Origin: Myxococcota bacterium
GTDB lineage: Bacteria > Myxococcota > UBA4151
DNA: 64,000 nucleotides
NCBI GenBank assembly: GCA_036338695.1
Contig: JAYZBQ010000022.1
Location: 11,644-75,643 of the forward strand
Reading direction: 5' to 3'
Shown here: piece after piece, positions 36,550 through 54,451 of the stretch
Position numbering within the stretch: position 1 is the stretch's first letter
Layout: the number at the start of each line of letters is the position of its first letter
The notes under the pieces: model-generated
Told to the model about the DNA's origin: nothing
The model's database searches: none
Seen by the model: the letters and a program-made list of their open reading frames with translations, nothing else
Made by a program: the position numbers and the translations under genes

Positions 36550-36587
36550 GATCGAAATAAACGAATAATGAAAGAATAAAACGACTA
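36550..36587 (+). promoter_or_regulatory. putative operator: two pairs of 9-bp direct repeats
   Basis: GATCGAAAT-AAACGAATA (36550-36567) and GAAAGAATA-AAACGACTA (36570-36587) in the AT-rich divergent intergenic region. Confidence 0.45.
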
Positions 36588-36679
36588 TTACAGCCAGATC
36601 TCCCATCGGAACACTCGCGCAGGTTGTCGGCGCTGGACTCTGCAGGCATGCTCCGGCGCCCTAGTGCGAGACGCGATAC

Positions 36680-37519
36680 ATGATTGCGCATCCCATCCCG
36701 TATCAAGGCAGTAAACGCCGCCTCGCCGGTCAGATCCTGCGCTTTGCACCGACACCGATACAGACCCTTTACGAGCCCTTCGCCGGCTCGGCTGCCATCA
36801 CCCTCGCCGCAGCCGCCTCGGAGCGCGCCCAGCGCTATGTTCTCGGAGATCAGCTCCAACCGCTGATCGAACTCTGGAATGAGGTGCTCGAGCGACCTCA
36901 TGAGCTGGCGGCTGCTTACACCGACTTGTGGCACGCTCAACACCATGACCCGAGAGCCTTCTTTGAGCAGGTACGGAGCGACTACAATGAATCGGCTGGC
37001 AGCGCTCGATTGCTCTATCTGCTGGCTCGGTGCGTCAAAAACGCCGTCCGCTTTAATGCGGCGGGTGCCTTTAACCAATCTGCGGATCACCGGCGACTCG
37101 GCACTAAGCCGGAGCGGATGAAGCGGCATATCCTGCTGGCGCACCAACACCTCGAGGGCCGTACACGAGCGGTTGCGACCGACTTCAGCGCGACGCTCGC
37201 GGCGGCTAAGCCAGGTGATTTGGTGTATTTAGACCCGCCCTATCAAGGAACCAGTCAAGGTAAAGACCGGCGCTATGTCGCCTCGCTCACACGCGAGCGA
37301 TTGATCAGTGAGCTAGAGCGCCTGCGAAGCCGAGGCGTTGCGACGATCGTAAGTTATGACGGCAGCACCGGGACACGGCGTTATGGCACACCGCTTCCGG
37401 CAGAGCTTGGGCTGCGTCGAATCGAGCTTAAGGCGGGCTGGTCGTCGCAAGCGACCCTCAACGGCCGGCGCGCCCAAACCGTGGAGTCGCTCTACCTCTC
37501 ACCGGAGGTGGCACCCTGA
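36680..37519 (+). CDS. orphan DNA adenine methyltransferase (Dam/D12 class)
   Basis: YQGSKRRL, EPFAGSAA (motif I), YLDPPY (motif IV); no adjacent nuclease. Confidence 0.88.
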   Translation: MIAHPIPYQGSKRRLAGQILRFAPTPIQTLYEPFAGSAAITLAAAASERAQRYVLGDQLQPLIELWNEVLERPHELAAAYTDLWHAQHHDPRAFFEQVRSDYNESAGSARLLYLLARCVKNAVRFNAAGAFNQSADHRRLGTKPERMKRHILLAHQHLEGRTRAVATDFSATLAAAKPGDLVYLDPPYQGTSQGKDRRYVASLTRERLISELERLRSRGVATIVSYDGSTGTRRYGTPLPAELGLRRIELKAGWSSQATLNGRRAQTVESLYLSPEVAP

Positions 37520-38220
37520 CGGCGCCTACGCAGCGCCCAAACACTGAAAAACAACCACCAACCCGGAGCAGCCGTTACTGAACAACCTGCAGGTGTCTCA
37601 GCACCACAGACCTGCTCCACAGGGTCGACCGCAGGCCCCGAGCCCGCTTCGTGGAAAAATCGGGCGTCTCCGAGCCAGTTCGGGGCGTTCGCCCAATCGT
37701 CACTCCCGAACTGTTCGGTCTCACCCACCGCCACCCACAGCTTACCCGTCTCACCGGTGGGACTCCATGCGGCGAGATAGCCGACCCCAGCCGGTACGGC
37801 GACCTTGCGCTCGATTAGGATCCAGGACTGCGTCTGCGTGAAAGGCTCAAAGAAGAGCTCACGTTCGCCCGAAACTGCGAGTCGCTCCAGACCCATGTCG
37901 TCCGGGATCGCAAAGGGCGTCGACTCATCCTGGCTGGCTTGCTCGTGAACCACGCCGAGCGCTGGCTCGTACTGCGCCAGCCGATCGATCAATGGAACGC
38001 CGAGCTGAACGAAGATCTCGGTGGGCTCGTCCACCTCATAGCGCAGCCAAAGGACGGGCTGCTCACAGGTCACGTTATGATAGAGCACGATGGAGATGTC
38101 TGGGTTTTCGATGGTCCATGCCTGCTCAGACGTTCCATACTGCCCGTCAGAGAAAAAGGGTTTATGCGCCGCAGCCGGCGTCGCGATCAGCCCTAAACCA
38201 AGCCAGAGAATGGAACGCAC
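37492..38220 (-). CDS. secreted protein with MYXO-CTERM-like tail
   Basis: Signal peptide then AHKPFF; FFEPFTQT motif; AGCS + hydrophobic stretch + RRRR. Confidence 0.65.
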   Translation of the reverse strand: MRSILWLGLGLIATPAAAHKPFFSDGQYGTSEQAWTIENPDISIVLYHNVTCEQPVLWLRYEVDEPTEIFVQLGVPLIDRLAQYEPALGVVHEQASQDESTPFAIPDDMGLERLAVSGERELFFEPFTQTQSWILIERKVAVPAGVGYLAAWSPTGETGKLWVAVGETEQFGSDDWANAPNWLGDARFFHEAGSGPAVDPVEQVCGAETPAGCSVTAAPGWWLFFSVWALRRRRQGATSGER

Positions 38221-38271
38221 AGCACACACCTCGCTTACCACATGACCACAATACACTTTTTACCGTACGCA

Positions 38272-38298
38272 AAACGACCAAAACGATCAACCCATCCA
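38272..38298 (+). promoter_or_regulatory. putative operator: tandem 9-bp direct repeats
   Basis: AAACGACCA-AAACGATCA-ACCCATCCA. Confidence 0.6.
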
Positions 38299-38381
38299 AC
38301 CAAGAGATGCGAATTGCGCTCAATCCGAGAAGGGATTGCAGAAAACGAGGGATTGGGCGTCTATGGATCATGGAGGTCGTC

Positions 38382-39302
38382 ATGCGCACCTTGATCCTAC
38401 TCTTCGCGCTGAGTTCCCCTGCTATCGCTGTGGCGGATTCGGCGGCAGTTTTCTCAAGAGGACCGCAAGCCACAGCGCCCGAGCGCGCCAGCCTGATCAT
38501 GCTCATCCGCAGCGCGCTCACAGAGCTCGGCTATTCTGAATGCCTTGATCGCAAGGGGCTGACCGTACCGAAGACGGCTCAGCTCAAGCGCCTGCTTGCC
38601 GACAAAGGCTGTGACCGCCTGTTCATGGTCGAGGTTATCCCACTGGGGCAAAAACGGGTCGTTCAGCTCACGGAGCTCAGCGCGTCAGCGCCCGAAAAAT
38701 CCCTGCACAGCGTGCGGATGAGCGCTGCGCGCGTCGAAGAGTTCGACGTTCTTGCGCCCAGGCTCGCCAAGGCGGTGCTCACGCGACGAGACGCCCGCAC
38801 CACCGCTCAGGTCGATCAGGTCACCGAGCGAGAGGGGCGAGACTGGAGGAAACGAGACGGCGAGCTCCTCGTCGGCGCCTCCATCCCCGTCGGCATCAGC
38901 GCGCACGCCGAGGCGGCGGCGTCGTACGGGATCGGTGGGCTGCTCAGCTATGAGATGGAGCGGGCTCGCCTCGACGCCGCCTTCTTGGGGCAGTTCAACA
39001 GCAGCGGAGACGAGTTGTGGCATGGAGGGCTCACGCTCGGTGCAGCGTATCTTTTCAACGCCGGCAACATCTCGCCCTACGTGGGCGCAAGCCTCGGTTA
39101 CGGGGCGACCTGGATGGGCTCCGACGTCGATGACGCCGACTTTGGATTGTTGACCAGCGTCGGCGGCGGCGTCGAATTCTTTCGGCTCTACCGCGCCCGG
39201 ATGCTCATCGACGCCAGGGTGACGGTCCCCACTTATCAGCTTGGGGACCGTCGCTACCCGATCTTCACCGGGATGTTCGGCGTCATGCTGGCGCTGCGCT
39301 AA
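38382..39302 (+). CDS. secreted protein with C-terminal outer-membrane beta-barrel-like domain
   Basis: GGAGG RBS; signal peptide; alternating beta-strand pattern 'ISPYVGASLGYG', 'GGGVEFFR'. Confidence 0.6.
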   Translation: MRTLILLFALSSPAIAVADSAAVFSRGPQATAPERASLIMLIRSALTELGYSECLDRKGLTVPKTAQLKRLLADKGCDRLFMVEVIPLGQKRVVQLTELSASAPEKSLHSVRMSAARVEEFDVLAPRLAKAVLTRRDARTTAQVDQVTEREGRDWRKRDGELLVGASIPVGISAHAEAAASYGIGGLLSYEMERARLDAAFLGQFNSSGDELWHGGLTLGAAYLFNAGNISPYVGASLGYGATWMGSDVDDADFGLLTSVGGGVEFFRLYRARMLIDARVTVPTYQLGDRRYPIFTGMFGVMLALR

Positions 39303-39304
39303 GG

Positions 39305-39976
39305 TCAGTACTTAACGCTGCAGCCCCAGCTCGAGGTGCTCGCTTTGCGCACACGCTTTCCAGAAGCCAAGTCGGCGAGCGCGTTGGTCAAGTACGGCTT
39401 GTAGGACTTGCCTTTGCGGCCGCTCGGTGCGTTGTCCGGCCCGCCCTTATAAGCCAGGTTGCCCTTGGCATCGACGACGAACATATGCGGGGTCGTCTTG
39501 GCGCCGTAGGCCTTGCCGACCTGGCCCGACTCATCGATCAGGATCGGGTAGTCCATGCTCCACTTTTTCGCGGCGGCTCGGTTCACTTCGGTGCCCTGTC
39601 CCTGCCGGCCCTTGGCGCCCGAGTTGATCGCAAGCCAGACGGTGTCTTTGCTCGACGTCGTCTTGGCGAGATTTTCCAGCACGCCGCCTTTGCCGTGCGC
39701 CGAGACCACGAAGGGGCACTCAGGGTTAAACCACTCGAGCACCACTGTCTTGCCCTTGTACTGCTCCAAAGAGTGCTCTTTACCATTGAGGTCTTTGAGC
39801 TTGAACGTCGGAGCGGCGTGCCCGACCGATGCCGTCTTGCCGTGCTGATGGTTGGTCTTCGCTTTGGCGTGGGCGGGCCCGCAGCCTCCGCAGTGCGCCA
39901 AAAGAGGCGGAGCAGCCTGGGCAGCGTGCGCCCAAGATAACGCCAGGACCGGGAGAAAGACTCGAAGGATCGTCAT
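39305..39976 (-). CDS. periplasmic thioredoxin/redoxin family protein
   Basis: VVLEWFNPECPFV, AINS, YGAKTTPHMFV, WGCSVKY. Confidence 0.88.
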   Translation of the reverse strand: MTILRVFLPVLALSWAHAAQAAPPLLAHCGGCGPAHAKAKTNHQHGKTASVGHAAPTFKLKDLNGKEHSLEQYKGKTVVLEWFNPECPFVVSAHGKGGVLENLAKTTSSKDTVWLAINSGAKGRQGQGTEVNRAAAKKWSMDYPILIDESGQVGKAYGAKTTPHMFVVDAKGNLAYKGGPDNAPSGRKGKSYKPYLTNALADLASGKRVRKASTSSWGCSVKY

Positions 39977-40848
39977 GGTATATTCCCTTTCATGAGATCG
40001 GTTTCCACGGCTGTGTAGCCACTCGCCGTTTCGATGTGAAGCGTCGCCAACAAGGACGCTGGTGTCGGTGATTTAGTCCAAAGCTCCGCCGGGAGCCTGC
40101 ACAGATTGTCTCGGCAGTAAGGCGTGGCGAGCCCATCGAGGCGAAGATGGAGCGCAGCGTGCGGGAACAATCTCACGGTGGCGCCTGCGGGTCCCTCGTA
40201 AACCCGCTCGGCGCCCGCGCGCTTCCACACGACCGATCGCTCCACCGGCAGCGCCTGCCATGCCTTATCCGTTGCGCTCTCTGGCTTCAGGGCTGCTGGA
40301 TCAGCTGGCTGAACCGCAATCTTCTTCGAGCCCTTGATGCAGATCTCGGCGCACGCCAGCCAGCTCGCCTCAAGCATTAACGCTTTGGATGACTCGAGCG
40401 GCGTCGAAGGGCGCTGCAGAAAGAAGGTCGTCGCTCCATCAAAGCCGTAGGAGACGATATCGCCTGCGCTCACCTTGCGCTTGGGTGCTGGCATCCGCGC
40501 AGCGACCTGTTCACGCCGTGGCGCGAGCAACTCGAAGGCTGTGGCGAGCCCCGTATCGCCGGGGCTATGCCAGTAAATGTGCCAACCTGGCGCAGGCGTG
40601 AGCTCGACGGCGAGCTGCGGCGCATCAACTCCGGTGATGCTCGTCCACTTCGCGCGTACGGCAACCTTTGGGACCTTCTCCGGCACCGGCTGGTGGGCAC
40701 GTTTCGCCTGCCCATCGGGCGCGGCGATCGGCTGGGCAGGCGCTGCTGGCGGGACCGCAATAGACGGACGCTCTACGCAGGCTGCGGCGACCGCAGCAAA
40801 GCTCAACAAAGCCGTGCGCCAAAGCGTCAAGTAAAGCCGACTGTTCAT
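39973..40848 (-). CDS. DsbD N-terminal (DsbC-like) domain lipoprotein
   Basis: GWHIYWHSPGDTG and WLACAEIC motifs; lipobox AAAC; coupled to the redoxin gene. Confidence 0.8.
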   Translation of the reverse strand: MNSRLYLTLWRTALLSFAAVAAACVERPSIAVPPAAPAQPIAAPDGQAKRAHQPVPEKVPKVAVRAKWTSITGVDAPQLAVELTPAPGWHIYWHSPGDTGLATAFELLAPRREQVAARMPAPKRKVSAGDIVSYGFDGATTFFLQRPSTPLESSKALMLEASWLACAEICIKGSKKIAVQPADPAALKPESATDKAWQALPVERSVVWKRAGAERVYEGPAGATVRLFPHAALHLRLDGLATPYCRDNLCRLPAELWTKSPTPASLLATLHIETASGYTAVETDLMKGNIP

Positions 40849-40888
40849 GGCGCGCAAATTAGACACGAGGTGATGACACCGCAACCCA

Positions 40889-40958
40889 AAACGACCAAAT
40901 CAACTTAATTTTCCGCTTGATTCCTGGTAAATCGGCAAATAAACGACCAAACCGACTC
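40889..40958 (+). promoter_or_regulatory. putative operator: two pairs of 9-bp direct repeats
   Basis: AAACGACCA-AATCAACTT (40889-40906) and AAACGACCA-AACCGACTC (40941-40958), the second just before the GAGGAGG RBS of the SOUL gene. Confidence 0.65.
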
Positions 40959-40972
40959 ACGAGGAGGTAAAA

Positions 40973-41641
40973 ATGAACGACGCTTTGCTCTGGATCGGCG
41001 TAGGAACGGCGCTCGTCGCTGGGCTTTGGTCAGGCTACACGGTCTTTTATGAAGGTCAGCTCGAGCAGCCGGCCTACGAGACCGTGCTTCGGCAGAGCGT
41101 CTTCGAGGTCAGGCGTTACGAGCCCTTCATCGTCGCAACCACGCCGATTCGTGGTCAGGGGCGCGCGCAGATGAGCGACGGATTCCGCTCCTTAGCGGGC
41201 TATATTTTTGGGCGGAACCAACCGCGAGAAAAGCTGGCGATGACAGCGCCGGTCCTTGCGACCACCGGCGAGGCGCTCGGTATGACGGCGCCGGTGATCA
41301 CCGACCGCTCAGCCGGGCACATGGCGTTTGTGATGCCGAGCCAGCGCACGCTCGCCGACCTGCCTCGACCGACCGGGCGGGGCATCACTCTAAAGACCAC
41401 TGACTGGGGTTTGGTAGCCGCTGTGCGCTACGCCGGCTACGCCACCGAGGAGCGAGTCCAGCGTCAGACGAAGTCGCTCAATGAGTGGCTTACCAAGCAG
41501 GGCTATGAAGTGCGCGGCGAAGCGCTAAGCGCTCAATACAACTCACCGAGTGCCATGCCGCTCTTGCGTCGAAACGAGATCCTCATCCCAGTACGCCCGG
41601 TGGTTACGGTGCTGTCGAGCTCAGCTTCGGAAGCGGAATAA
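40973..41641 (+). CDS. SOUL haem-binding protein
   Basis: EQPAY, FEVRRY, GFRSLAGYIFG.N, MTAPV (x2), MAFVMP, RRNEILI. Confidence 0.92.
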   Translation: MNDALLWIGVGTALVAGLWSGYTVFYEGQLEQPAYETVLRQSVFEVRRYEPFIVATTPIRGQGRAQMSDGFRSLAGYIFGRNQPREKLAMTAPVLATTGEALGMTAPVITDRSAGHMAFVMPSQRTLADLPRPTGRGITLKTTDWGLVAAVRYAGYATEERVQRQTKSLNEWLTKQGYEVRGEALSAQYNSPSAMPLLRRNEILIPVRPVVTVLSSSASEAE

Positions 41642-42497: not shown

Positions 42498-42537
42498 AAC
42501 ACGACTCCTCGTCGGCGTTCGGGTGTTTTGCACCGAT

Positions 42538-42617
42538 TGGCCGATTATTTATCTTTTTTATGAACAGATTGGTCGATTTAATCAATCAGATTATATAATA
42601 AACGTATAAATCGACTT
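42538..42617. promoter_or_regulatory. divergent promoter with -10 box and 9-bp repeat operator
   Basis: TATAAT at 42594-42599 followed directly by AAACGTATA-AATCGACTT (42600-42617); minus-strand AATCGACCA (42570-42578) and AATCGGCCA (42538-42546). Confidence 0.65.
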
Positions 42618-42631: not shown

Positions 42632-43534
42632 ATGAAAAGCGTGATCACGGGTGCGACGGGCTTGATCGGTATGCGGCTGGCTCAAGGCTTGGACCAACCG
42701 ACCATACTCAGCCGGAACCCGGAGCGAGCGCAGCGCCTGATGCCCGGCGCGCAGGCTGTTGGGTGGGCACCGGAGCGGGAAGCAGCGCCGGTCAGTGCGC
42801 TGGAGGGGCGAGACGTAGTGTTTCACCTCGCTGGCGAGCCCGTGGCGTCGGGACGCTGGAGCGATGAAAAGAAGCGCAGAATACGTGATAGCCGAGTGAT
42901 CGGGACCCAGCGCCTCCTTGAGGGGCTGGCAGCCTGCGAACATCCGCCAAAGACGCTTGTTGCAGCTTCCGCTGTGGGATTCTACGGTGATCGGGGTGAC
43001 ACCGTCCTCGACGAATCCTCATCGATGGGCGAGGGCTACCTGGCCGAGGTCTGCCGCGACTGGGAGACCGAGGCGCTTCGCGCCGAGAGCCTCGGCATCC
43101 GTGTCGTCTGCTTACGCATCGGCATCGTCCTCGCAGAAGACGGCGGTGCGCTCGAGCAGATGCTCCCTATCTTCCGACTCGGAGGGGGCGGAAAGCTGGG
43201 GAGCGGTCAGCAATGGATGCCCTGGATTCATGTCGACGACGTAGTCGGGCTGTTGCTTTGGTCCGCCACCAACCCGGAGGCGAGCGGGGTCTACAATGGC
43301 GTGGCTCCCGAGCCTGTCCGTAACGCGGAGTTCACCAAATCGCTGGCGGCAGCGATCAACCGCCCGGCGTTTATGCCGGTACCCCGCCTCGGTCTACGGC
43401 TTCTGTTTGGCGAGAAAACATCGATCATCATGGCGTCGCAGAACATCCAACCCCGGCGCGCCTTAGGTGACGGATATCGCTTCGCCTTCCCCCAACTCGA
43501 CGGAGCGCTGAACACCCTTTTTGGTGCGGCGTGA
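42632..43534 (+). CDS. TIGR01777 family NAD-dependent epimerase/oxidoreductase
   Basis: ITGATGLIG, HLAGE, SRVIGT, ASAVGFYG, GSGQQWMPWIH. Confidence 0.92.
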   Translation: MKSVITGATGLIGMRLAQGLDQPTILSRNPERAQRLMPGAQAVGWAPEREAAPVSALEGRDVVFHLAGEPVASGRWSDEKKRRIRDSRVIGTQRLLEGLAACEHPPKTLVAASAVGFYGDRGDTVLDESSSMGEGYLAEVCRDWETEALRAESLGIRVVCLRIGIVLAEDGGALEQMLPIFRLGGGGKLGSGQQWMPWIHVDDVVGLLLWSATNPEASGVYNGVAPEPVRNAEFTKSLAAAINRPAFMPVPRLGLRLLFGEKTSIIMASQNIQPRRALGDGYRFAFPQLDGALNTLFGAA

Positions 43535-44922
43535 GGCGCACCCTGCTGTGGTTTCGCGGTAAGGACTTACGCGTCGAAGACCACGAGGGGCTTCACCGAG
43601 CGCTCGCCGCAGACGAGGTCATCCCCGTCTTTGTCCTCGACCCGTATTTCTTCGATCCCGAGCGCGCCCAAGCGCTACCGCACCGAATGCAGTACTTGCT
43701 CGATGCGCTCGAAGAGCTCGCCGGTGACCTGCGCCAGCTCGGCAGCGAGCTCATCATCGAGCAGGGGCGAAGCGTCGACGTCATCCCGACGCTGGCTGCT
43801 GAGTGGGCTGTTGACGAGGTCATTGCGCAGGGTTGGACTGAGGGCTTCGGGCGCCAGCGCGACGCCCGCATTGAGGCGCAGCTGAGCTGCCCGCTGACGC
43901 TAGTTGATGGCGAAACGATGGTCTCACCGGGCTCGGTACGGACGCAACAAGGCGGAGCCTACAGCGTCTTTACGCCGTACTGGCGACGCTTCATGGCGAC
44001 GGCGCAGATCGCCCCACCACGACCGCGCCCTTCGCAGCTCCCTCCCCTTCCATCAGGCTGCGAAAGCTCGGCGCGCATCCCCTCGCTCGACGAGCTCGGG
44101 ATCCAGCGAAATCACCAGCTCCTCAAAGGAGGCTCAACCGCTGCGAAAGAGCGACTTTCGGGCTTTCTCTCGGCACGCGTCGGGTCGTACAAAACGGCGC
44201 GCAACCGACCCGACAAGGACGGCTCGAGCCGCTTAGGTCCTGACCTCAAGTTCGGCGCCCTCTCGGCGCGCCAGATCTGGGCGGCGGCGCAGCAACCGGA
44301 ATTACGCTCCGATTCGGGGTCCTTTCGGCGGCAGCTGGTCTGGCGAGAATTTGCGCACGACCTCGTGTGGAACCAGCCCAGGCTTCTCACCGAACCCTTT
44401 CGGCCCAAGTTTCGTGAATTCCCTTGGATTGGGCTCGACGAGCACTGGGAGGCGTGGGTCGAAGGCCGTACAGGCTACCCCATCGTCGACGCAGCGTCTC
44501 GCCAGCTCCTCGCCACCGGCTTCATCCCGAACCGAGCACGCATGATCACGGCGAGCTTCCTGACCAAGCATCTGCTCATCGACTATCGGCGGGGCGAGGC
44601 GCATTTTATGAAGTGGCTCACCGATGGTGACTGGATCCAGAACAATTTTGGGTGGCAGTGGTCAGCCGGCTGCGGGTGTGACGCGCAGCCGTATTTTCGC
44701 GTCTTCAATCCGATCCTCCAGGGCAAAAAGTTTGACCCCCAGGGCACCTACGTCCGGCGATGGGTTCCTGAACTCGAAGGCGTGCCTAAAAAGTGGATCC
44801 ACACGCCTTGGCTCGCCGAGCGCTCGCTCTTCGCTGCCGATTACCCGGCGCCGATCGTCGATCATGCGACCGCACGTAAGCGCTTCTTGGAACATGCGAA
44901 GGCGTATCTAGCGACCGTCTGA
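43531..44922 (+). CDS. phrB: deoxyribodipyrimidine photolyase (cryptochrome/photolyase family)
   Basis: WFR.KDLRVEDH, VFTPY, SRLGPDLKFG, WREF, GRTGYPIVDA, NRARM, GWQWSAGCGCDAQPYFRVFNP. Confidence 0.93.
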   Translation: MRRTLLWFRGKDLRVEDHEGLHRALAADEVIPVFVLDPYFFDPERAQALPHRMQYLLDALEELAGDLRQLGSELIIEQGRSVDVIPTLAAEWAVDEVIAQGWTEGFGRQRDARIEAQLSCPLTLVDGETMVSPGSVRTQQGGAYSVFTPYWRRFMATAQIAPPRPRPSQLPPLPSGCESSARIPSLDELGIQRNHQLLKGGSTAAKERLSGFLSARVGSYKTARNRPDKDGSSRLGPDLKFGALSARQIWAAAQQPELRSDSGSFRRQLVWREFAHDLVWNQPRLLTEPFRPKFREFPWIGLDEHWEAWVEGRTGYPIVDAASRQLLATGFIPNRARMITASFLTKHLLIDYRRGEAHFMKWLTDGDWIQNNFGWQWSAGCGCDAQPYFRVFNPILQGKKFDPQGTYVRRWVPELEGVPKKWIHTPWLAERSLFAADYPAPIVDHATARKRFLEHAKAYLATV

Positions 44923-45432
44923 ACCGCGCTGCCGTCGAAACACACGAACAGCACGCACAGGCGTCTTGCCTGGGACCTTGAAGGTGACCTCTTCGTGAAA
45001 AACCACGTCACTGATTCGACGCCGTGCGGTCGTCATCAACCCCTGCGGAAAGCGATCCTCCGTCAGGAGCGTATCCCCCTTGCCCAGCCAGCGAGATCGA
45101 CGCTCAGTCGTCCCGCCGTCGAGATTTTTGCCGATCGCCCAGCGGTTATCCACCGGCAGGACGATCGCCTCATCGGTGAAGCGCGTGATGACACGAAAGC
45201 TGATCCCGCGACGGGTAGCTCGAATAACCTGCTTGACCGCCAAAGAGCTCATCACCTTCCGAGCGATCCAGCCGTAGCCCATCGCCTGGAGTACAGGGTC
45301 CAGCGAGGTCGAGCTTTGTGCGTCGAGCGACCAGGTCCCCTCCATCCAGACCGCCGGTTTCGCCTGCGCCGGCTGGGCAACCGAGCACACGCCCAGCGCC
45401 AGCGCACAGGCTAGATGCACCGTGGTCCTCAT
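44908..45432 (-). CDS. secreted FABP/calycin-fold lipid- or bilin-binding protein
   Basis: Signal peptide ending AQA; 'EGTWSL..SS..LD..LQAMGYGWIARK' matches the FABP N-terminal signature; C-terminal 'AVRVFRR'. Confidence 0.6.
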   Translation of the reverse strand: MRTTVHLACALALGVCSVAQPAQAKPAVWMEGTWSLDAQSSTSLDPVLQAMGYGWIARKVMSSLAVKQVIRATRRGISFRVITRFTDEAIVLPVDNRWAIGKNLDGGTTERRSRWLGKGDTLLTEDRFPQGLMTTARRRISDVVFHEEVTFKVPGKTPVRAVRVFRRQRGSDGR

Positions 45433-46271
45433 CGGCTGCTCTGCGTTTGAGTCAGCTCTTGTGTCAGCGCCAGACAGTCGATGACTCTGCTGCGCGTCAC
45501 GTAGTGGCGCCCTCCCGCGCAGATCCTCTTCATCGCCACGTCATGATCTTGGGCGAACAGCGACCTTTGAGCGTGCGCCAAAGGCACCTCATCCCCATCG
45601 CAAAAGAGCCGGCGGTTCACCACTCGGTAGGTGGCTCGCTCATCCACTACGTCGACCTCGAAGCGGCGCTCAAAGCCCTCACCTGAGCGCAGCTCAAGCT
45701 CTGCTCGCCCATCGGCTAAGTCGAGCTCGGCACGGACAAATCCGGGCTCCACCCAGCGTTGGCGAATACGCTGAATCGGGCTGTACTCGGCGATGCAGTG
45801 AAGGCGCGCCAAGGCGGCGCCAAAAAAATAGTCAGGCGTCTCTCGGCCATTGCCCGGTTTGGTCATCACGACGCGCACGTGCTCTGGCCGACCGATGCGC
45901 TGCCGCAGCGCTTGATGCCAAGGCGCGAGCAGTTCGATATGCTCCACGTGCAGCAAGCGCTCCTGTCGCTGCGCCAACGAGAACAATGCCTGCGCAGCCA
46001 CAGGCTCGAGCGCCACCGGAAACTCCACCACGACATCGCAGTCAGCCTCAAGAGCGCGCCGCACCTGCGCCTCATGCTCAGCAGAGGGCGAGCAGATGGC
46101 GACGGCCTCGACGCGTTGGATCAGGTCATCAAAACCGACCTCTGGAGCTTCAAACTCGTGTGCAAACCGACCTCGGCAGACGGCGCTGAGGGTCGCACCT
46201 GGATCCAGAGCGATCGCTCGGGCACGGGCGCGCCCGGCACGGCCAACGCCAACGACCCCCCAACGCACCAA
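45429..46271 (-). CDS. biliverdin reductase A-like oxidoreductase (Gfo/Idh/MocA family)
   Basis: VVGVGRAG, ICS.S..H, VVVEFP, LHVEHIELL, ALARL, GEGFER, LFAQD, RVIDCL all track BVR-A motifs. Confidence 0.75.
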   Translation of the reverse strand: MVRWGVVGVGRAGRARARAIALDPGATLSAVCRGRFAHEFEAPEVGFDDLIQRVEAVAICSPSAEHEAQVRRALEADCDVVVEFPVALEPVAAQALFSLAQRQERLLHVEHIELLAPWHQALRQRIGRPEHVRVVMTKPGNGRETPDYFFGAALARLHCIAEYSPIQRIRQRWVEPGFVRAELDLADGRAELELRSGEGFERRFEVDVVDERATYRVVNRRLFCDGDEVPLAHAQRSLFAQDHDVAMKRICAGGRHYVTRSRVIDCLALTQELTQTQSSR

Positions 46272-46290
46272 CGCTAGTCCGCCTACCCGG

Positions 46291-46803
46291 TCACGCCGAG
46301 CGCTTCGCCGGTGCCGCTTCCCGGGGCGGGAAGAGCTGATGCATCATCTCGTGCCGGTACCGAAAGATCCGGTCCACGTCGTTGCGCACAAACAAGCGCT
46401 GAATGATGGAGCCACCGAAGACACGGTAGATCACGCGGTCGGTGCACATCGTCCCGCCGTCTTGCTCAACGAACTCATGGGTATGGTGCCACTGACGGTA
46501 CGGCCCGCGTAGTTGCTGGTCGACGAAGCTGTGCGGCGGGTTCCAGTCGGTGATCTCGGTGCGCCACTTCAGCGGGATCCCCCGCAGCCGAATCCGGTAG
46601 TCGATCAGCGCGCCGGTTTTCATCTCGATCGGCTTGGGCGTCAGCACCTCGAACCGTAGGAACTCGGGCGTCAAAACCTGCAAGTTGTAGGCGTCTTGAA
46701 AGAACGCGAAGACCTCGTCGATCGGATAATCTAAAAAGCAGTGCGACTCGAGCAGCCATGACCCATCCGGCTGCCTTGTTTGCGTTACGTCGTTGTTGCT
46801 CAT
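46291..46803 (-). CDS. SRPBCC family protein
   Basis: VFAFF.DAYNL..LTP, WRTEIT, FVDQQLRGPYRQWHHTHEF, IFRYRH. Confidence 0.9.
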   Translation of the reverse strand: MSNNDVTQTRQPDGSWLLESHCFLDYPIDEVFAFFQDAYNLQVLTPEFLRFEVLTPKPIEMKTGALIDYRIRLRGIPLKWRTEITDWNPPHSFVDQQLRGPYRQWHHTHEFVEQDGGTMCTDRVIYRVFGGSIIQRLFVRNDVDRIFRYRHEMMHQLFPPREAAPAKRSA

Positions 46804-47357
46804 CAGCTCAACTCCTTCTCATCACGTTGTTCTAAAAGCGCTCGAGCGCGCTCGCTCAGGAGCCCGAGCGCAATCGACCAGACGGCGCCGACCGCAAGAG
46901 CTCCTTCTAAGCCATGGATCTCCATACACCCGAGCCGCTCTCCACCGAGATAGGCGGCGGGCCCACCAAAGGCGCCTACTGCCGTCGCCAGCCCGCGGGT
47001 CCGAAGCAGCGCGAACTGGCTGTGCAGCGCCGTGGCGCCAAAACCAGCCCACAGCGAGATCATCCACAAAGGCACGCCCGCGAGCCGCATGCCCCCGAAA
47101 TAGGTGACCGACCCGGTCGCCGCCAAGGTGGCGTCGGTGGCGAGTCCCACCCCGACCGCCCAGACCAGCATCAGGAGCTCTTGCCGCAGCGCTCGACGCT
47201 CAAACCAGAGATGAACGGCAACGAACATCGCCATCGCGCTCGGCCGCACCCACCCGACACCGAGCACACACGCCCACCAAGCCGCCTGATGGCTAAGCCA
47301 TTGCGGCGCGCCGCCCCATCGCCAGATCATCGGACGCTGAAGGACGTCGGCTACCAT
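46803..47357 (-). CDS. DUF2878 family membrane protein
   Basis: HQAAWWACVLG, PLWMISLWAGF, GGPAAYLGG.RLG. Confidence 0.8.
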   Translation of the reverse strand: MVADVLQRPMIWRWGGAPQWLSHQAAWWACVLGVGWVRPSAMAMFVAVHLWFERRALRQELLMLVWAVGVGLATDATLAATGSVTYFGGMRLAGVPLWMISLWAGFGATALHSQFALLRTRGLATAVGAFGGPAAYLGGERLGCMEIHGLEGALAVGAVWSIALGLLSERARALLEQRDEKELS

Positions 47358-48304
47358 AAGCTCGACGGGTACGGATCCAGGTAGACCTGCCCAGCAAGCC
47401 ACGGATGCGCCCCTTTATCCAACACCTGGTGTTTGAGGAGCGTGAGCGGCGCGAGCAGCGACGTCTGGCCGTTTCCGTAGGCTCGGATCGCCTCCATCGT
47501 GTGCTGCCGACAGACACGGCTCAAGCGCTTTGAAACGTAGCCCATGATGTGCTGGAGCACGTTGACGTGGCGCCCGCGCGTTAGCCGATGCCCCATCACC
47601 GACTGCGCCTGGCCCAAATGATCTGCCAGCTGTTCCTGGGTGAGCGCACCTTTCAAGCTCGCCACCTGCCGACCGAGCGCTCGCTGAGCGCCAGGATGAT
47701 GCGCCATGTACAGCAGCTTGTGCGAAGCATACTCTGCCTGAAGCGCAGCGACCGATGGGTCCTCGCGCAACGCTTTGAGCCGCCTGCTCGTAAAAATCCG
47801 ATGCAGAAACTGCTGACGCAACATGGCGTCTTTGAGCCAACCCTCTTCCGCGCGCGCGAGCGCCGGGAAGTCGTTGCGCAGACGGTGCGTCAAGAAGCCG
47901 GCATCGCGCGCCACGACCTGCGCTTTTCGCTCGACGCCGGCGTATACCTTGACGCCGCTGATCCCGCAGGTGGGCGAGCCGCGCTTGAGTAAGAAACCAT
48001 CGAGGTCCAAACGAGACAGCCGATCGCTGATCGATTCGAGGGTCGAGTCCATGAGCGCGGTGTGATCTACGCCGCTCGGTGACTCGACGAGCGCGTTACG
48101 GGTCTCGCCGCGCAGCACTCGCACGACGGGTCTAGGGACACCCATACCCGCTTCCACTTCCGGGCATACCGGGACGAGTTCGACGTGCTGAGCGAGGACG
48201 TCCATCACGAAGTTATCTCGCTGGTGCCCGCCGTTGTAGCGGACCTGCTCGCCCATCAGGCAGGCGCTGATGCCGACGCGCGGCGCAAGACGATCTGCTG
48301 TCAT
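47351..48304 (-). CDS. YbgA family protein (DUF523 + DUF1722)
   Basis: GISACLMGEQVRYNGGH, VCPEVEAGMGVPR, SPTCG, HKLLYMAH, NVLQHIMGY, QVYLDPYP. Confidence 0.92.
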   Translation of the reverse strand: MTADRLAPRVGISACLMGEQVRYNGGHQRDNFVMDVLAQHVELVPVCPEVEAGMGVPRPVVRVLRGETRNALVESPSGVDHTALMDSTLESISDRLSRLDLDGFLLKRGSPTCGISGVKVYAGVERKAQVVARDAGFLTHRLRNDFPALARAEEGWLKDAMLRQQFLHRIFTSRRLKALREDPSVAALQAEYASHKLLYMAHHPGAQRALGRQVASLKGALTQEQLADHLGQAQSVMGHRLTRGRHVNVLQHIMGYVSKRLSRVCRQHTMEAIRAYGNGQTSLLAPLTLLKHQVLDKGAHPWLAGQVYLDPYPSSLW

Positions 48305-48306
48305 AA

Positions 48307-48387
48307 AACCACCCAAAACGTTCGCTTCGCCTAGATATTAGCGCCCAAACTGCGTATTTACAAACCAACAAACGACCAAAACAACTT
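48307..48387 (+). promoter_or_regulatory. putative operator: two pairs of 9-bp direct repeats
   Basis: AACCACCCA-AAACGTTCG (48307-48324) and AAACGACCA-AAACAACTT (48370-48387). Confidence 0.65.
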
Positions 48388-48389
48388 TT

Positions 48390-49832: not shown

Positions 49833-50006
49833 ATGGACGCGATGACGCGCAGCCTGACGCTACAACTTGAGAGCCTATACGAAGAGCGCGCGTTTTTAGC
49901 GCAAGAGATCGGCGTGAGCGATGCACGCGACATTGTCGCGATGGTGCGCAGTCTGGAGGCGCAGCTGAACGACCTCTACGCACAGGTTGATCAACCGCAA
50001 AAATAA
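49833..50006 (+). CDS. small helical protein with two SLxxQLxxLY repeats
   Basis: 57 aa; MTRSLTLQLESLYEE / MVRSLEAQLNDLYAQ; directly upstream of and co-oriented with HTH-PYP. Confidence 0.6.
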   Translation: MDAMTRSLTLQLESLYEERAFLAQEIGVSDARDIVAMVRSLEAQLNDLYAQVDQPQK

Positions 50007-50035
50007 TAGCCTTTTTGCACGTTTTGGCTTGCCGT

Positions 50036-50053
50036 AAAGGTCCAAATAGTCCA
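50036..50053 (+). promoter_or_regulatory. putative autoregulatory operator upstream of HTH-PYP
   Basis: AAAGGTCCA-AATAGTCCA 9-bp pair; minus-strand AAACGTGCA at 50016-50024. Confidence 0.5.
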
Positions 50054-50081
50054 GCATAGCGACGTCTGGACAAAGAACATC

Positions 50082-50630
50082 ATGGCTGATCAGCATTTAA
50101 CGAGCACGAGAGTTGCGGAAATCCTTGGGGTTACGGCGTCAACGGTCAAACGTTGGGCTGACGAAGGCTCCTTGCCTTGCGAGCGCACCGCTGGGGGACA
50201 CCGGCGCTTCTTGGCGTCCGAGGTCGCACGCTTCCGACAAACAGAAGCAGACACCAGCGTGGCGCATCTGGCCACGCTAAGCGAAGAAGAGTTTGACGCG
50301 CTCCCGTACGGCGCGATCGGGCTCGACGAGCAAGGGGTGATCATCCGCTACAATGCAACCGAGGCGACGTTTTCGAACCACAAGGCGGACCAAGTTCTCG
50401 GGAGGAACTTCTTCACGCAGGTCGCTCCCTGCACCAACAACCGACTCGTCTTTGGCGCTTTTCGTGATGGGATCGCGTCGGGCTCGATGGACGTGAAGAT
50501 CCCCTACACCTTCACTTATGTGATGAAGCCGACCAACGTCGTGCTTCACATGGTGCGCTGCCAAGATACCCGGACCAACTGGCTGCTAGTCCACCATAAT
50601 ACGGATTCGACCGGCTCACTTATCGTGTAA
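50082..50630 (+). CDS. BldC/excisionase-type HTH fused to a photoactive yellow protein (PYP) domain
   Basis: HTH 'LTSTRVAEILGVTASTVKRWADEG.L...RTAGGHRRF'; PYP 'FDALPYGAIGLD..G.I.RYNATE...GRNFFTQVAPCT...YTFTYVMKPTNV' with Tyr42, Glu46, Cys69 and Met100 equivalents. Confidence 0.9.
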   Translation: MADQHLTSTRVAEILGVTASTVKRWADEGSLPCERTAGGHRRFLASEVARFRQTEADTSVAHLATLSEEEFDALPYGAIGLDEQGVIIRYNATEATFSNHKADQVLGRNFFTQVAPCTNNRLVFGAFRDGIASGSMDVKIPYTFTYVMKPTNVVLHMVRCQDTRTNWLLVHHNTDSTGSLIV

Positions 50631-50667
50631 GGGCTCCCCGCCGCGACGGCGAGGAGGAGCACGAACG

Positions 50668-51588
50668 ATGAACAAGAGCACCCTTTGGCTTGGCGCCTTG
50701 CTGGTCACTGCTTGCGGTGAGCCCTCTGAACAACCCAGCGACACCAACCGCCCCGACCTGAGCGACCTGCTCGACGCCGGGCCTGTAAGTTCGCCCGACG
50801 CAGGCGCTTCAGCAGACGCAGGCGTCGCGCCGAGCGACGCGGGGCCAAGCCCCATCGATGCCGGCGGCAACGTCGAGCCAGACGCCGGACCTCCCGCTCC
50901 GGTCGCTACCGAGCAACGCTACGCCATGAAGGCGGTCTCTGCGGTGCAACAGCGAAACCCCAGCCCGCTGGGGAACGAAGAGGTGCGCGTGACGACGACA
51001 CAGTACGTGCTGCTTGAGAGCGAGCGACTTGAAGAGGACTTCAGCTGGACAGAGACACTGTGCAGCATCACAACCAGCGAGGCGCGTTACCGGTTTGGGA
51101 TCCGCGCCAGCACCAGCTACCCGGCCGCCTTTGTGGATCACTTCCCGACCTTCGAGCGGACCGGGACGTGGACCGAAGCAGGCGAGTTCTCCGCAGGCCC
51201 GATGGCCTCGGTCGTCGGCGCTGAGCTGGCCAACCCGCTACGCGACCCACTACCCACCGAGCCAGGCGCAGGCGGGGAGATCGACTCCGACGAAGATGGT
51301 CATCCCGGCGTCACGGTCAACGTCGGCGGCGCCGTCTCGGGTTCCGTTTATGTAGCGCAGCGAAGCATCATATCGCTGCGCGGCCGAGAGCGCGACGGCG
51401 GCCGGATCGAAGGTCTCTGGCAATCCAATGACGAGCAGGTCGTTCTTGGCGCAAGCAGTGGGATCTTGAACCGACAGGTGGAGCGCCGCCGAGATCCGGA
51501 GGACGCTGCGAGCTTCTTTATTATGACCCCGATCGATGACGCGTGGGATTGCGACGACATCACCGCTCGGATCGACGAGCTGTTCTAA
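50668..51588 (+). CDS. lipoprotein of unknown function
   Basis: GAGGAG RBS; lipobox VTAC; DAG linker; DSDEDGHPGVTV loop. Confidence 0.7.
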   Translation: MNKSTLWLGALLVTACGEPSEQPSDTNRPDLSDLLDAGPVSSPDAGASADAGVAPSDAGPSPIDAGGNVEPDAGPPAPVATEQRYAMKAVSAVQQRNPSPLGNEEVRVTTTQYVLLESERLEEDFSWTETLCSITTSEARYRFGIRASTSYPAAFVDHFPTFERTGTWTEAGEFSAGPMASVVGAELANPLRDPLPTEPGAGGEIDSDEDGHPGVTVNVGGAVSGSVYVAQRSIISLRGRERDGGRIEGLWQSNDEQVVLGASSGILNRQVERRRDPEDAASFFIMTPIDDAWDCDDITARIDELF

Positions 51589-51989
51589 GCCGCCTCAACG
51601 GACGGCTCAGCGCCGTAAGCCCAGCGAGCGGACGCAGCGACCGTGGCGGTGAGCACGACGCCCCAGACGATATCGACCACGACCAGGCCTGATGGCCAGG
51701 CTTCGATGACGGCCCAGTTGGTGAACTCAAAGGTCGCGTAGGCGAACCAACCGAGCAGCGCGCCGCGCGCCGCCGCCATCCGCACGCTCGCAGCGGGGAG
51801 CGCGCCGAAGAAGACCACCACGGCGATGTATTGAACGTAGAAAAGCGCGGCAGCGCCGACCACGGTCTCTTGCGCTCGCAGCGGGCCGAGCTGTTCGTTG
51901 TAAAAGGATGCGGCGAAGACACCAAGCCAAACCAAATCCACGACCACCATGACCAACGCAGCCACGACAACGGCTCGAACAGAACGCAT
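51585..51989 (-). CDS. DUF2177 family membrane protein
   Basis: DLVWLG...FY..QLG, AYATFEFTNWA...WP...VDIVWG. Confidence 0.88.
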   Translation of the reverse strand: MRSVRAVVVAALVMVVVDLVWLGVFAASFYNEQLGPLRAQETVVGAAALFYVQYIAVVVFFGALPAASVRMAAARGALLGWFAYATFEFTNWAVIEAWPSGLVVVDIVWGVVLTATVAASARWAYGAEPSVEAA

Positions 51990-52035
51990 GGGCTTCCTCC
52001 TTGTCCAGCGAGCTCAAAAGAACGAATTGGATATT

Positions 52036-52097
52036 TATCCGATTTGAACTTGAACGAATTTTTCGATTGTGTATAGATAAACCGCATAAATCGACCA
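52036..52097. promoter_or_regulatory. divergent promoter with 9-bp repeat operators on both strands
   Basis: Plus strand AACCGCATA-AATCGACCA (52080-52097); minus strand AATCGAAAA-ATTCGTTCA (52051-52068) and AATCGGATA (52036-52044). Confidence 0.65.
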
Positions 52098-52106
52098 AGG
52101 CGCCCC

Positions 52107-52775
52107 ATGAAGAAGCCACAAAGCAGTTTTGAATCGACTATTTCGTTCAGCGCCTCAGCGACCGTCCCGACACGCTACGGTGACTGGGAGATGAGCACTT
52201 TTCACGACGCTCAAGGCGTCGAGCATGTCTGCCTAACGCACGGCGATGTCGCCGATCACGACGACGTCCTGTGCCGCTTTCACTCGGCTTGCATGACGGG
52301 TGAGATCTTCGGCTCAAAGCGTTGTGACTGCGGCGAGCAGCTCGATGGAGCGTTTCGCCGCATCCAGAAGGCAGGGCGGGGCGTGATCGTCTACCTCGCG
52401 CAGGAAGGGCGCGGGATCGGCCTGACCAACAAGCTGCGCGCCTACGACGTGCAGAACCGCGGCTACGACACGGTGGACGCCAACCGAGCGCTCGGCCTAC
52501 CAGATGACATCCGGAGCTACGACGACGCCAACGCAATCCTCAAGCTGCTCGGCGTGCGCAGCGTCCGGTTGATGACCAACAACCCTGACAAGCTGCGCAG
52601 CGTGCGCGAGGCGGGCTTACTCGCCGACCGCGAGGCGCACCTTCTGCCCGTGGGCGCGCTCGCCCAGCGCTACGTCCAGACCAAGCAGCATCGCATGGGT
52701 CACCTCAACGAAGGCAGCGCCGACAGTCAGCCCCTGTTCCCCAGCGAGTTCGAGACCCTGCTCAACGCCTCGTAA
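52107..52775 (+). CDS. ribA: GTP cyclohydrolase II
   Basis: HSACMTGEIFGSKRCDCGEQL, QEGRGIGL.NK, DTVDAN, MTNNPDK, RMGH. Confidence 0.95.
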   Translation: MKKPQSSFESTISFSASATVPTRYGDWEMSTFHDAQGVEHVCLTHGDVADHDDVLCRFHSACMTGEIFGSKRCDCGEQLDGAFRRIQKAGRGVIVYLAQEGRGIGLTNKLRAYDVQNRGYDTVDANRALGLPDDIRSYDDANAILKLLGVRSVRLMTNNPDKLRSVREAGLLADREAHLLPVGALAQRYVQTKQHRMGHLNEGSADSQPLFPSEFETLLNAS

Positions 52776-52778
52776 ACG

Positions 52779-53765
52779 ATGCCGTCTACACCATCCAATC
52801 GGACGCTGGCGGTTATCGGCGCAGGCGTCTCCGGCCTCACCGCCGCGGCGCAGCTGCAGCGATCTGGGTGGAGCGTTCGCCTCTTTGACAAAGGGCGCGG
52901 GCCAGGCGGGCGCGCTGCGACAAGGCGCAGCGCTTCGGGTGGCTTTGACCACGGCGCTCCGTATTTTACGGTGCAGACTGCGCAGGGGCGAGCGCTGGTC
53001 GAGCGCTTGCACGCTCAAGGGGTTGTGGCGCCGTGGTCCGGCCGCTTCGCAAGCGTGGACGCAGCCAACGCGTTCCATGAATCGCCAGCGCATGAACGGT
53101 GGGTCGGACGACCCAAAATGAGCGCGCTCGGTCGGTATCTGAGCCGTGATCTCGAGGTGAATTTAAGCACGCGTATCGTGACGCTCGGTGGCAAACCTGG
53201 CGCCTGGACCCTCGTCGACGAAAACGAGCACCACCACGGCTCCTTTCATGCTGTGCTCATGAGCTGTCCCGGGCCGCAGGCTGCAACGCTCCTACCCAAA
53301 CCCAGCGCGCTGCACGCGCGCTGCCTCGCGATGCGCTATGCCGTCTGCTGGGCTGGTCTCGTCGAGCTTACCGCTCAAGAGCCGTTTGCCTGGGACAGCC
53401 TCTCGTTCGAAGCCGGCACGCTCGGCGAGGCGTTTCGCAGCAACAGCAAACCGGAACGCAGCGGCGCCGAGCGATGGGTGGTCCACGCAGCGCCTGACTG
53501 GAGCTCAGCACATCGCCACGACGCGCCGGAGGTCGTGGGTCAAGCCCTGACCGAAGCCTTTGAAGAAGCTACCGGACAAAAGGTGCACACGATGACCGTG
53601 CACCGATGGCTCTACGCTCGAGCGCTCCAAAACGAGGGCGAGGTTGCTCTTATCGACAGCGAGCGACGGCTGGGCTTATGCGGCGACGGGATGACCGGTG
53701 GAGGCGTTGAAGCGGCATACATTAGCGGGCTCGAGCTGGCCAAGCAGGTGCAGGCGCATTTCTAA
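52779..53765 (+). CDS. renalase-like NAD(P)/FAD-dependent oxidoreductase
   Basis: IGAGVSG, DKGRGPGGR, FDHGAPYF, HRWLYA, CGD, VEAAYISG. Confidence 0.9.
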   Translation: MPSTPSNRTLAVIGAGVSGLTAAAQLQRSGWSVRLFDKGRGPGGRAATRRSASGGFDHGAPYFTVQTAQGRALVERLHAQGVVAPWSGRFASVDAANAFHESPAHERWVGRPKMSALGRYLSRDLEVNLSTRIVTLGGKPGAWTLVDENEHHHGSFHAVLMSCPGPQAATLLPKPSALHARCLAMRYAVCWAGLVELTAQEPFAWDSLSFEAGTLGEAFRSNSKPERSGAERWVVHAAPDWSSAHRHDAPEVVGQALTEAFEEATGQKVHTMTVHRWLYARALQNEGEVALIDSERRLGLCGDGMTGGGVEAAYISGLELAKQVQAHF

Positions 53766-53783
53766 GCGCAGCAGCCGAATCCC

Positions 53784-54221
53784 TCAGACGTTTTGAGGAG
53801 GCGGCTCAGAAGCTCGCCGGCTCGGGCGCCAGATATCGGCTGCGACCAGGACACCCGCTGCGATCACGAACTGAAGCGGCATGCGCGCCCACAAGAGCCA
53901 GCGCTCACGCGCCATCCCGTCAATGTAGACGTCAGCGACCAACATGTAGATGTTGGCTGGATACACGGCGACCAGCAGCGCCAGCAGCCCCCACCCGGCC
54001 AACCGCCGGGTACGCGACCAAAGCAAACCCACACCGCCTGCGACCTCAAAGAATCCGCTGATGTAGACCAGCTCAAGCGGAGCTGGCAGAAAAGGCGGCA
54101 CGATCGGCACGAACAAGCCAGGGTTACGAAAATGTTCGACCCCGACAGCGATGAAGGACAGCCCAACCAAAAGCGTGATGAACTGCGCTTTCAAGGGGCG
54201 GCTCATGGCGTGATCAGACAT
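53784..54221 (-). CDS. DoxX-like membrane protein
   Basis: GVEHF..P, IVPPFLP, SGFFEV, AVYPANI, ARMPLQ; start uncertain (in-frame ATG also at 54338). Confidence 0.8.
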   Translation of the reverse strand: MSDHAMSRPLKAQFITLLVGLSFIAVGVEHFRNPGLFVPIVPPFLPAPLELVYISGFFEVAGGVGLLWSRTRRLAGWGLLALLVAVYPANIYMLVADVYIDGMARERWLLWARMPLQFVIAAGVLVAADIWRPSRRASEPPPQNV

Positions 54222-54337
54222 CGGCTGCTCCCCTCTCAAGCTGCGCGCAGAGCGACGAGCAGCCGATGGCGCCGAAGCGCCCTCCCCCTTTTGCTCACTC
54301 GAGGCGCCCCGCTCCTTCGCTGCGCGAATAAATACCA

Positions 54338-54355
54338 TGAACGTTTTGTTCGATT
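54338..54355 (-). promoter_or_regulatory. putative operator: 9-bp direct repeat pair
   Basis: Minus strand reads AATCGAACA-AAACGTTCA, in the AT-rich divergent region before hemH. Confidence 0.6.
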
Positions 54356-54451
54356 TTAATATCAAAATCCAGCTAATATACGACCGCTCCCTGCGATCCG
54401 CCCACAGATGCGCCGCCTAAAGAGCACAGGCTTAGACAGGATACACAGACC

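Follow-up and report, generated by a model that had tools for sequence, protein, structure and literature searches.

BldC of Streptomyces binds 9-bp direct repeats of the form AATTXXXX(C) head-to-tail, its residue H46 reading the AT-rich minor groove and R30 a C-G pair (PMC5859096), and CarH responds to green light using 11-bp nnnnTnnACAn repeats and vitamin B12 (PMC9304148). For CtMerR the authors predict "an alternative DNA-binding site", which the available text does not name (PMC11796333). In photoactive yellow protein (PYP), the N-terminal segment unfolds in light and can switch an engineered GCN4 fusion (Fan et al., 2011, cited in PMC4469895), whilst how PYP passes on its signal is described as largely unknown in two surveys of the family (PMC9664959; PMC12826048). 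The stretch of DNA analysed in this study (the window) comprises 64,000 nucleotides of contig JAYZBQ010000022.1 of a Myxococcota bacterium. Between 36.5 and 54.5 kb, every divergent promoter gap contains a paired 9-base repeat, hereafter the box, and a gene at 50082..50630 (+) encodes a regulator of 182 amino acids (aa), HTH-PYP, in which a BldC/Xis-like winged helix-turn-helix (HTH, aa 6-53) is followed by a PYP domain (aa ~60-171). The box is proposed here to be the operator of this protein.

The paired repeat is real. Its unit is AAWCGNYYA, repeated directly with a period of 9. The original prediction, made from the window alone, had placed such pairs at almost every promoter of an island of ~19 kb, and a matrix built from ten of its pairs (18-mers) was used to scan the 3.36-Mb genome of origin (completeness 93.6%) with window positions 36-55 kb taken out. 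In the labels used below, G, L and C numbers denote genomes, loci and contigs, G000 being the genome of this window and L002 a locus from the same genus. At a score of at least 20, spacing 9 accounted for 11 pairs in the held-out DNA, compared with 0-2 for any other spacing between 5 and 25. Inverted arrangements yielded 0-1 and are not enriched, so a palindromic operator was ruled out. The best 20 matches genome-wide all fall between called genes, with intergenic DNA making up ~11% of the genome according to the gene caller of this study. An independent matrix, trained with no window DNA, gave 40, 24 and 10 intergenic matches at three thresholds, against 4.3, 0.7 and 0.03 (maxima 10, 2 and 1) when these gaps were dinucleotide-shuffled 30 times, so the enrichment originally anticipated over a matched background is confirmed. 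Only 19 of 100 AT-rich gaps in the genome have a box, and AT-richness therefore does not explain it. That the box arises from the A-richness of promoters, or serves as a promoter element read by a sigma factor, is hardly credible and largely refuted: its sites do lie in AT-rich gaps, and the pattern arises by chance inside genes of the lower-GC genomes G008 and G040, but besides being specific to period 9 and far above shuffles, the box adjoins separate -35 and -10 hexamers and occurs in both orientations relative to genes.

The limits drawn for the island, on the other hand, did not hold. At a score of at least 14 with the independent matrix, the box occurs in 30 intergenic gaps on 17 contigs, with seven of these gaps inside the window, and the region has a GC content of 59-65% per kb, near the 63.9% of the genome. 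Foreign origin of the block was ruled out, as it does not stand out in GC content and is found in synteny in L002.

The link between box and protein comes from relatives of the HTH domain. The HTH-PYP query retrieved 51 genome loci, most matching the HTH part only, and 21 of the 23 non-PYP homologues scanned possess B12-binding domains. In a set of 69 loci, from which a short locus, three that were own or duplicate entries and seven matches of the PYP-only or non-HTH kind had been removed, a pair scoring at least 12 with the matrix from the ten original pairs lies within ~130 bp upstream of the HTH gene in 35 cases (30/64 without the window's family), and spacings other than 9 give 1-8 of 69. 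Other open reading frame (ORF) starts have a box in 4 of 608 cases, two of them crtI-like and one TIGR01777-like by eye. A second held-out set was formed from 80 new metagenome loci, 12 of which were dropped (5 short, 4 without an anchor, 1 duplicate, 2 PYP-only). Here the box precedes 43 of the 62 clade genes not recognised as PYP fusions, two of which are probably truncated fusions, compared with 4/202 control ORFs (two DUF523-like) and none of eight outgroup HTH genes; spacing 11 is not enriched (0/68 at a score of at least 12). The box is thus far from equally common at unrelated promoters. Unseeded expectation-maximisation on 59 non-PYP upstream regions produced the motif AAaCGaacAAAtCGaccA, whose top 30 matches in G000 include 8 of the 11 sites first reported.

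Given the difference between clade genes and controls, the box follows an HTH clade with the signature TVKRW...TxGGHRR that spans several phyla, and since B12-domain relatives have the same box, it belongs to the HTH domain and not to PYP. The clade profile finds exactly one gene, HTH-PYP, in G000 and in each of five same-family genomes (G000-G005), and the other two HTH_17/MerR genes of G000 lack the clade signature. As HTH-PYP is the sole local member of the box-linked clade, the box is read as its operator, and it is very probable from these sequence comparisons that HTH-PYP binds it. The original assignment of the box to this protein is thereby supported by comparative evidence, with the corrections that the site is tied to the HTH rather than to PYP and that the regulon is spread over the genome rather than confined to an island. 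A second excisionase-type HTH gene of G000 (180 aa; C48:392598-393140, L131:2099-2641) belongs to a different clade and heads an operon that has no box.

The features of the protein itself agree with this role. HTH-PYP matches HTH_17/MerR and PAS in Pfam, with no B12-binding domain in the domain scan, and its PDB matches are PYP (E 4e-25), CtMerR (8JBS), RacA and BldC; for the HTH alone the best match is CtMerR (E 4e-9, SVKRW...RTPGGHRR). BldC residues R30, W31, T42, G44, H46, R47 and R48 are kept, and the DNA-reading and wing residues R24, G38, H40, R41 and R42 (BldC R30, G44, H46, R47 and R48) are invariant among homologues; the score against the BldC model NF033787 is 54.3 bits, below the 77-bit cut-off. 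Y90, E94 and C117, equivalent to Y42, E46 and C69 of PYP, are invariant in 58/58 fusion homologues, and the predicted structure (pLDDT 85.6) was matched to the PYP fold by Foldseek (E 5e-13, rmsd 1.4 A). By residues and fold, the sensor is a PYP-family domain. The match to TIGR02373 covers model positions 13-122 and scores 111.8, below the cut-off of 143.05. The modelled structure has the final helix of the HTH (45-57) continuing directly into helices matching the PYP N-terminal segment.

Several observations weigh against this assignment. The regulator's own sites are the weakest in the window (9.4), although the counterpart of one of them, the minus-strand pair at 50007-50024, scores 17-21 in three same-genus loci. 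Conservation at orthologues, as originally expected, was found in the same genus and family and is mostly missing further away, where one of six metagenome loci and none of six genomes with distant HTH-PYP genes has a nearby box; at least two of the distant HTH-PYP genomes also have non-PYP paralogues of the clade. BldC K26 (S here), T29 (K here) and the E16-R22 bridge are not kept. Counts of the exact pattern in 61 genomes do not separate clade-bearing from clade-less genomes, six of the former having no match at all, and the clade-less G040 and G008 do have matches, with 9 of the 10 sites fetched there lying in long ORFs. This genome-level comparison was set aside as too blunt, its counts being low.

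It is very improbable, nonetheless, that another protein binds the box and that HTH-PYP is a mere target, the candidates being the TetR at C72:32470 and a paralogue of the B12 type that the assembly has lost. G000 is incomplete at 93.6%, and G025 and G060 possess both HTH-PYP and HTH-B12 genes, with the boxes of G060 at the non-PYP paralogues. Each of the six family genomes, however, has exactly one clade HTH, boxes are found 5' of clade HTH genes across unrelated phyla, and there is no excess of the inverted arrangements that a TetR site would show. A CarH-type regulator was not found in G000, where the sole PF02607 match lies in a 1209-aa frame, and there were no PF12973 matches indicating a ChrR cupin anti-sigma in this assembly.

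In a tree of the HTH alone (57 sequences, ~47 columns, with seven rows labelled B12 without a domain scan), PYP-fused and non-PYP domains are interleaved in one clade with support of 0.85; the resolution is too low for the number of fusion events to be counted. In L200 (1570-2900), a stand-alone pyp gene and an HTH-B12 gene are divergently arranged, with a box 5' of pyp. This unfused arrangement, which also occurs in L201, is a plausible precursor of the HTH-PYP fusion. A photolyase-like ORF, identified by eye and with no Pfam match, adjoins the pair in L200. A plasmid search for clade HTHs and the CtMerR locus returned two weak matches, and G052 contains near-identical clade HTH fragments at C22:485160-485330 and 593075-593245, each broken by a TGA stop.

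The position of the box within promoters points to repression. Of the 116 boxes located by clade genes, 17 come immediately after a TTGACA-like hexamer and so fill the spacer. In 24 the preceding hexamer is TAnnnT-like and the box covers the start site, and a third unit is favoured at +18; box-holding spacers measure 16-17 bp by eye, unlike the long MerR type. These are the positions of a repressor, and HTH-PYP probably represses, the direction of the light response being suggested by target content and by analogy with CarH. Each HTH would read one 9-bp unit, and two or more would stack head-to-tail as in BldC, forming an array that blocks RNA polymerase. Blue light would isomerise p-coumarate on C117 and thereby loosen the PYP N-terminal segment, which is joined directly to the HTH; this would weaken cooperative DNA binding and release the repressor. 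A small protein encoded next to HTH-PYP (discussed below) may bind the PYP domain, where it would hold the lit state in a trap or act as a scaffold for the dark oligomer. Taken as a whole, it is reasonably likely that HTH-PYP represses a photoprotection regulon spread over the genome and is released by light. Alternatively, HTH-PYP may bind the box and sense light but activate, its lit state binding and remodelling the promoter or recruiting polymerase. MerR-family proteins are able to activate from the spacer, and for some boxes the nearest start is 100-250 bp away. Engineered GCN4-PYP is listed as active at 450 nm (PMC4469895). Activation is nevertheless improbable, given that several boxes overlap the start site or the ribosome-binding site, that the spacers are not of the long MerR type, and that the B12 relatives with the same box resemble the dark repressor CarH.

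The supply of chromophore may also speak against a light-sensing repressor. No tyrosine ammonia-lyase (TAL) was found in G000, the sole aromatic lyase of which scores as HutH (697 bits, cut-off 539), and no gene of this genome reaches the cut-off of TIGR02372, the coumarate ligase (pCL), the best scoring 50 of 335 bits, although this ligase test is weak because genomes with stand-alone PYP fail it too. Histidine ammonia-lyase (HAL) is told from TAL by a residue rule, and G001, G004, G005 and G060 have a single lyase each. The sensor could then work without p-coumarate, with C117 detecting an oxidant, an aromatic acid or a CoA ester and light acting indirectly via reactive oxygen species. Such a protein would still bind the box, and the absence of TAL and pCL, the single lyases and the TIGR02373 score below its cut-off are in line with it, as is the overlap of the regulon with singlet-oxygen and reactive oxygen regulons, for instance those of ChrR and MerR in Vibrio (PMC5241685). 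It is rated unlikely, since the three chromophore-pocket equivalents Y42, E46 and C69 are invariant in all the fusions, and since TAL and pCL are scarce around pyp in any case: both surveys report their frequent absence, one of them finding TAL in 5% and pCL in 32% of pyp operons and proposing uptake (PMC12826048), the other proposing HAL as the chromophore source (PMC9664959). Proteorhodopsin is moreover kept in G000 although phytoene synthase was not found there, which hints at scavenging of chromophores. That light acts through the PYP chromophore is accordingly the likelier reading. A marine heterotroph that makes neither p-coumarate nor retinal would therefore sense light only when scavenging them.

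Adjoining the regulator is a conserved partner gene (49833..50006, +) for a protein of 57 aa with two LE.QL..LY motifs. It is present in 7/8 genomes with HTH-PYP and in 0/53 others, and it adjoins HTH-PYP in 7/7 metagenome loci and in 4/4 further genomes (from 401 genomes). The protein has no match in Pfam, NCBIfam or PDB; its best ESM Atlas score, 0.80, provides a lead only, and a complex predicted with HTH-PYP (aa 1-172) scored 0.20 against a mark of 0.32, which speaks neither for nor against an interaction. On the other side, G002 has HTH-PYP and boxes without the small gene. On balance it seems somewhat probable that the small protein takes part in control by HTH-PYP. In L305 (G102:C510), a stand-alone PYP adjoins a protein with several repeats of the partner's QL..LY motif, and this longer repeat suggests that the partner tracks PYP rather than the HTH. 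A neighbouring partner protein is also known for Rc-PYP, where PBP is a 36-kDa dimer (bioRxiv 2021.06.01.446672). In two same-family genomes, at L128:6455 and L129:6848, a promoter of the form TTGACA-box-(-10) is directed outwards from the small gene and HTH-PYP. The strand it would read shows no clear gene, and a small RNA or a small ORF is possible there.

The predicted regulon is a photoprotection set of ~30 target promoter regions distributed across the genome, and a box scoring at least 14 is present at 45 of the 1456 operon heads predicted. Genes under the box in the window include those for a SOUL protein, DUF1295, an operon of a TIGR01777 oxidoreductase and a CPD-type photolyase (42632..44922, +), an operon of DUF523/DUF1722, DUF2878, SRPBCC, GFO/IDH/MocA and a protein of no assigned family (44908..48304, -), an Omp85-like protein, HTH-PYP itself and DUF2177, followed by ribA, an FAD oxidoreductase, a DoxX-like protein (-) and ferrochelatase (hemH) at 52107..55504. 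Outside the window, the box is found at a photolyase-related DPRP [(6-4) photolyase], an FAD oxidoreductase-DUF1365-cfa-cfa cluster, a desaturase with TetR, a proteorhodopsin, two glutathione peroxidases, and genes for fasciclin, CIA30, YceI and a CysJ-like flavoprotein. Blue light is reported to induce cfa and phr in Vibrio (PMC5241685). In same-family genomes, boxes occur at photolyase/DUF523, DPRP and HTH-PYP. The proteorhodopsin-type gene (G000:C80:5446-6096, L055) lies under two boxes. Its helix C is DTE-like and its tuning position is occupied by Gln, and it presumably absorbs blue light.

The content of the regulon is not uniform, with several boxes lying 5' of genes that have no known link to light, and in a marker-gene test on G000 the second photolyase (C5) and the housekeeping ribA lacked a box. 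This test is partly circular because the markers were picked among box neighbours, and its only independent part is that of the paralogues, in which a box is present at the second cfa and the second glutathione peroxidase and absent from the second copies of photolyase and ribA and from two redoxins. Metatranscriptome contigs placed on 36000-55900 with 90-99% identity (X1 in 26/30 bins, X2 in 8/30) were set aside, since strand, start and level are not given by contigs. Boxes also flank the gene of a 120-aa membrane protein (G000:C58:46679 and 47150), kept in two same-genus genomes (L135, L144), from which a ToL/ExbB operon is divergent.

Within the window, the eight pairs originally quoted agree letter for letter with the sequence, and under the independent matrix 9 of the 11 reported sites score 15-23, compared with a best score of 12.1, within a gene, elsewhere in the window. 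The pair AAACGACCA AAACGATCA (38272..38289, +; score 23.4) lies between the divergent genes 37492-38256 (-) and 38379-39302 (+). Two pairs share the gap between a DsbD_N/redoxin operon (-) and the SOUL haem-binding gene (+), at 40889..40906 (+; 18.7) and, immediately 5' of the ribosome-binding site of the SOUL gene, at 40941..40958 (+; 19.3). The pair at 42600..42617 (+; 18.8) abuts TATAAT (42594-42599) 5' of the TIGR01777-photolyase operon, and the divergent gap of the Omp85-like gene contains the pair at 48370..48387 (+; 18.2), 5' of that gene, and the weak pair AACCACCCA AAACGTTCG (48307..48324, +; 11.0) at the start of the DUF523/DUF1722-DUF2878-SRPBCC operon (-). In L002 the former has 17 consecutive identical bases and the latter is stronger. 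The HTH-PYP promoter holds the weak pairs AAAGGTCCA AATAGTCCA (50036..50053, +; 9.4), kept in position in L002, and AAACGTGCA AAAAGGCTA (50007..50024, -; 9.4). Further downstream, AATCGAAAA ATTCGTTCA (52051..52068, -; 17.3) faces DUF2177, the pair at 52080..52097 (+; 20.3) follows TATAGAT 5' of ribA and the FAD oxidoreductase gene, and that at 54338..54355 (-; 21.6) occupies the DoxX/ferrochelatase divergent gap. These three and the 42600 pair are kept in L002, where boxes persist at 5/5 orthologous gaps aligned, though much flanking DNA has drifted.

The list of pairs first given missed two minus-strand pairs, that at 50007-50024 and AATCGACCA ATCTGTTCA (42561..42578, -; 12.1), which faces DUF1295 and has an L002 counterpart scoring 19.3. 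The array reported at 36550-36587 is present but looser than a plain spacing-9 pair (9, 11, 9). Counting both strands, it covers 36549..36596 with spacings of 9, 11, 9 and 9, between 36115-36519 (-) and a Dam-type methylase gene (+), and with a best pair of 15.4 at 36579-36596 it is the least certain of the sites. The D12-class adenine methylase gene at 36680-37519 (+) sits among regulon genes with no obvious cognate nuclease adjoining. A box-like pair within the 5' end of ribA (52132-52149, +; 17.4), shared with L002 and L130, may act as a downstream operator or reflect coding constraint. Large Cys-rich surface proteins with DUF4215 repeats are numerous in this genome (window positions 10554-14069 and 57047-59581; also C58, C10 and C80), some with fibrinogen or RCC1 domains.

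Drawn together, these findings tentatively suggest a wider picture, in which a natural PYP switch of the one-component type, served by its own 57-aa partner, governs a genome-wide set of light genes (two classes of photolyase, proteorhodopsin, defence of the membrane and against peroxide) in a marine heterotroph lacking its own p-coumarate and retinal, having arisen by the swap of a B12 sensor for PYP on a BldC-like domain, with a 9-bp operator common from Myxococcota to Bacteroidota that may be the missing site of CtMerR-type regulators. The box is a candidate site for the wider group of these B12 regulators, whose site was left open in the available text of PMC11796333. As PYP here has its own output domain, a predicted operator and ~30 target promoter regions, light, DNA binding and expression become testable in one small protein, and, if the reading is true, this 182-aa protein and its 18-bp operator would give optogenetics a compact blue-light switch. 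The fusion as such has been listed before, in the supplement of PMC12826048 (MBX2811747.1 and MBT6178959.1; one parsed HTH_17-PAS), the available main text of which mentions neither HTH nor MerR; the matches listed from the supplement of PMC9664959 are all gene neighbours. In the literature covered, which does not extend to subscription papers, neither an operator of HTH-PYP nor this box was found described. What is new is the combination of operator, regulator and genome-wide regulon, the design logic being known from CarH and BldC and the fusion from a supplement.

Compared with the known systems, H. halophila PYP, like Ppr and Ppd, shares the fold and Y42/E46/C69, and HTH-PYP differs by fusion behind a DNA-binding domain. 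Engineered GCN4-PYP likewise places a DNA-binding element on the PYP N-terminal segment, but with a synthetic leucine zipper in place of the natural winged HTH and its predicted operator. The RpoE/ChrR singlet-oxygen regulon differs in that ChrR was not found in G000. CtMerR of Chloracidobacterium thermophilum (8JBS/8JBT) is a light-responsive regulator with the best PDB match to the HTH, yet its sensor is adenosylcobalamin and not PYP. CarH/LitR of Thermus, Bacillus and Myxococcales are photoreceptor-repressors on tandem direct repeats over the promoter, with an 11-bp repeat and a B12 domain in CarH as opposed to the 9-bp box and no B12 domain in HTH-PYP. BldC of Streptomyces (6AMA/6AMK) shares the 9-bp direct repeats, in which an AT-rich 4-mer is followed by CG, in two to four units, and its repeat AATTCGGAC is paralleled by the box unit shifted by one base (AAAWCGWYY); it controls development and has no sensor domain, whereas HTH-PYP has a C-terminal PYP domain. 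HTH-PYP would combine BldC-like DNA recognition with CarH-like logic, and is a member of neither family.

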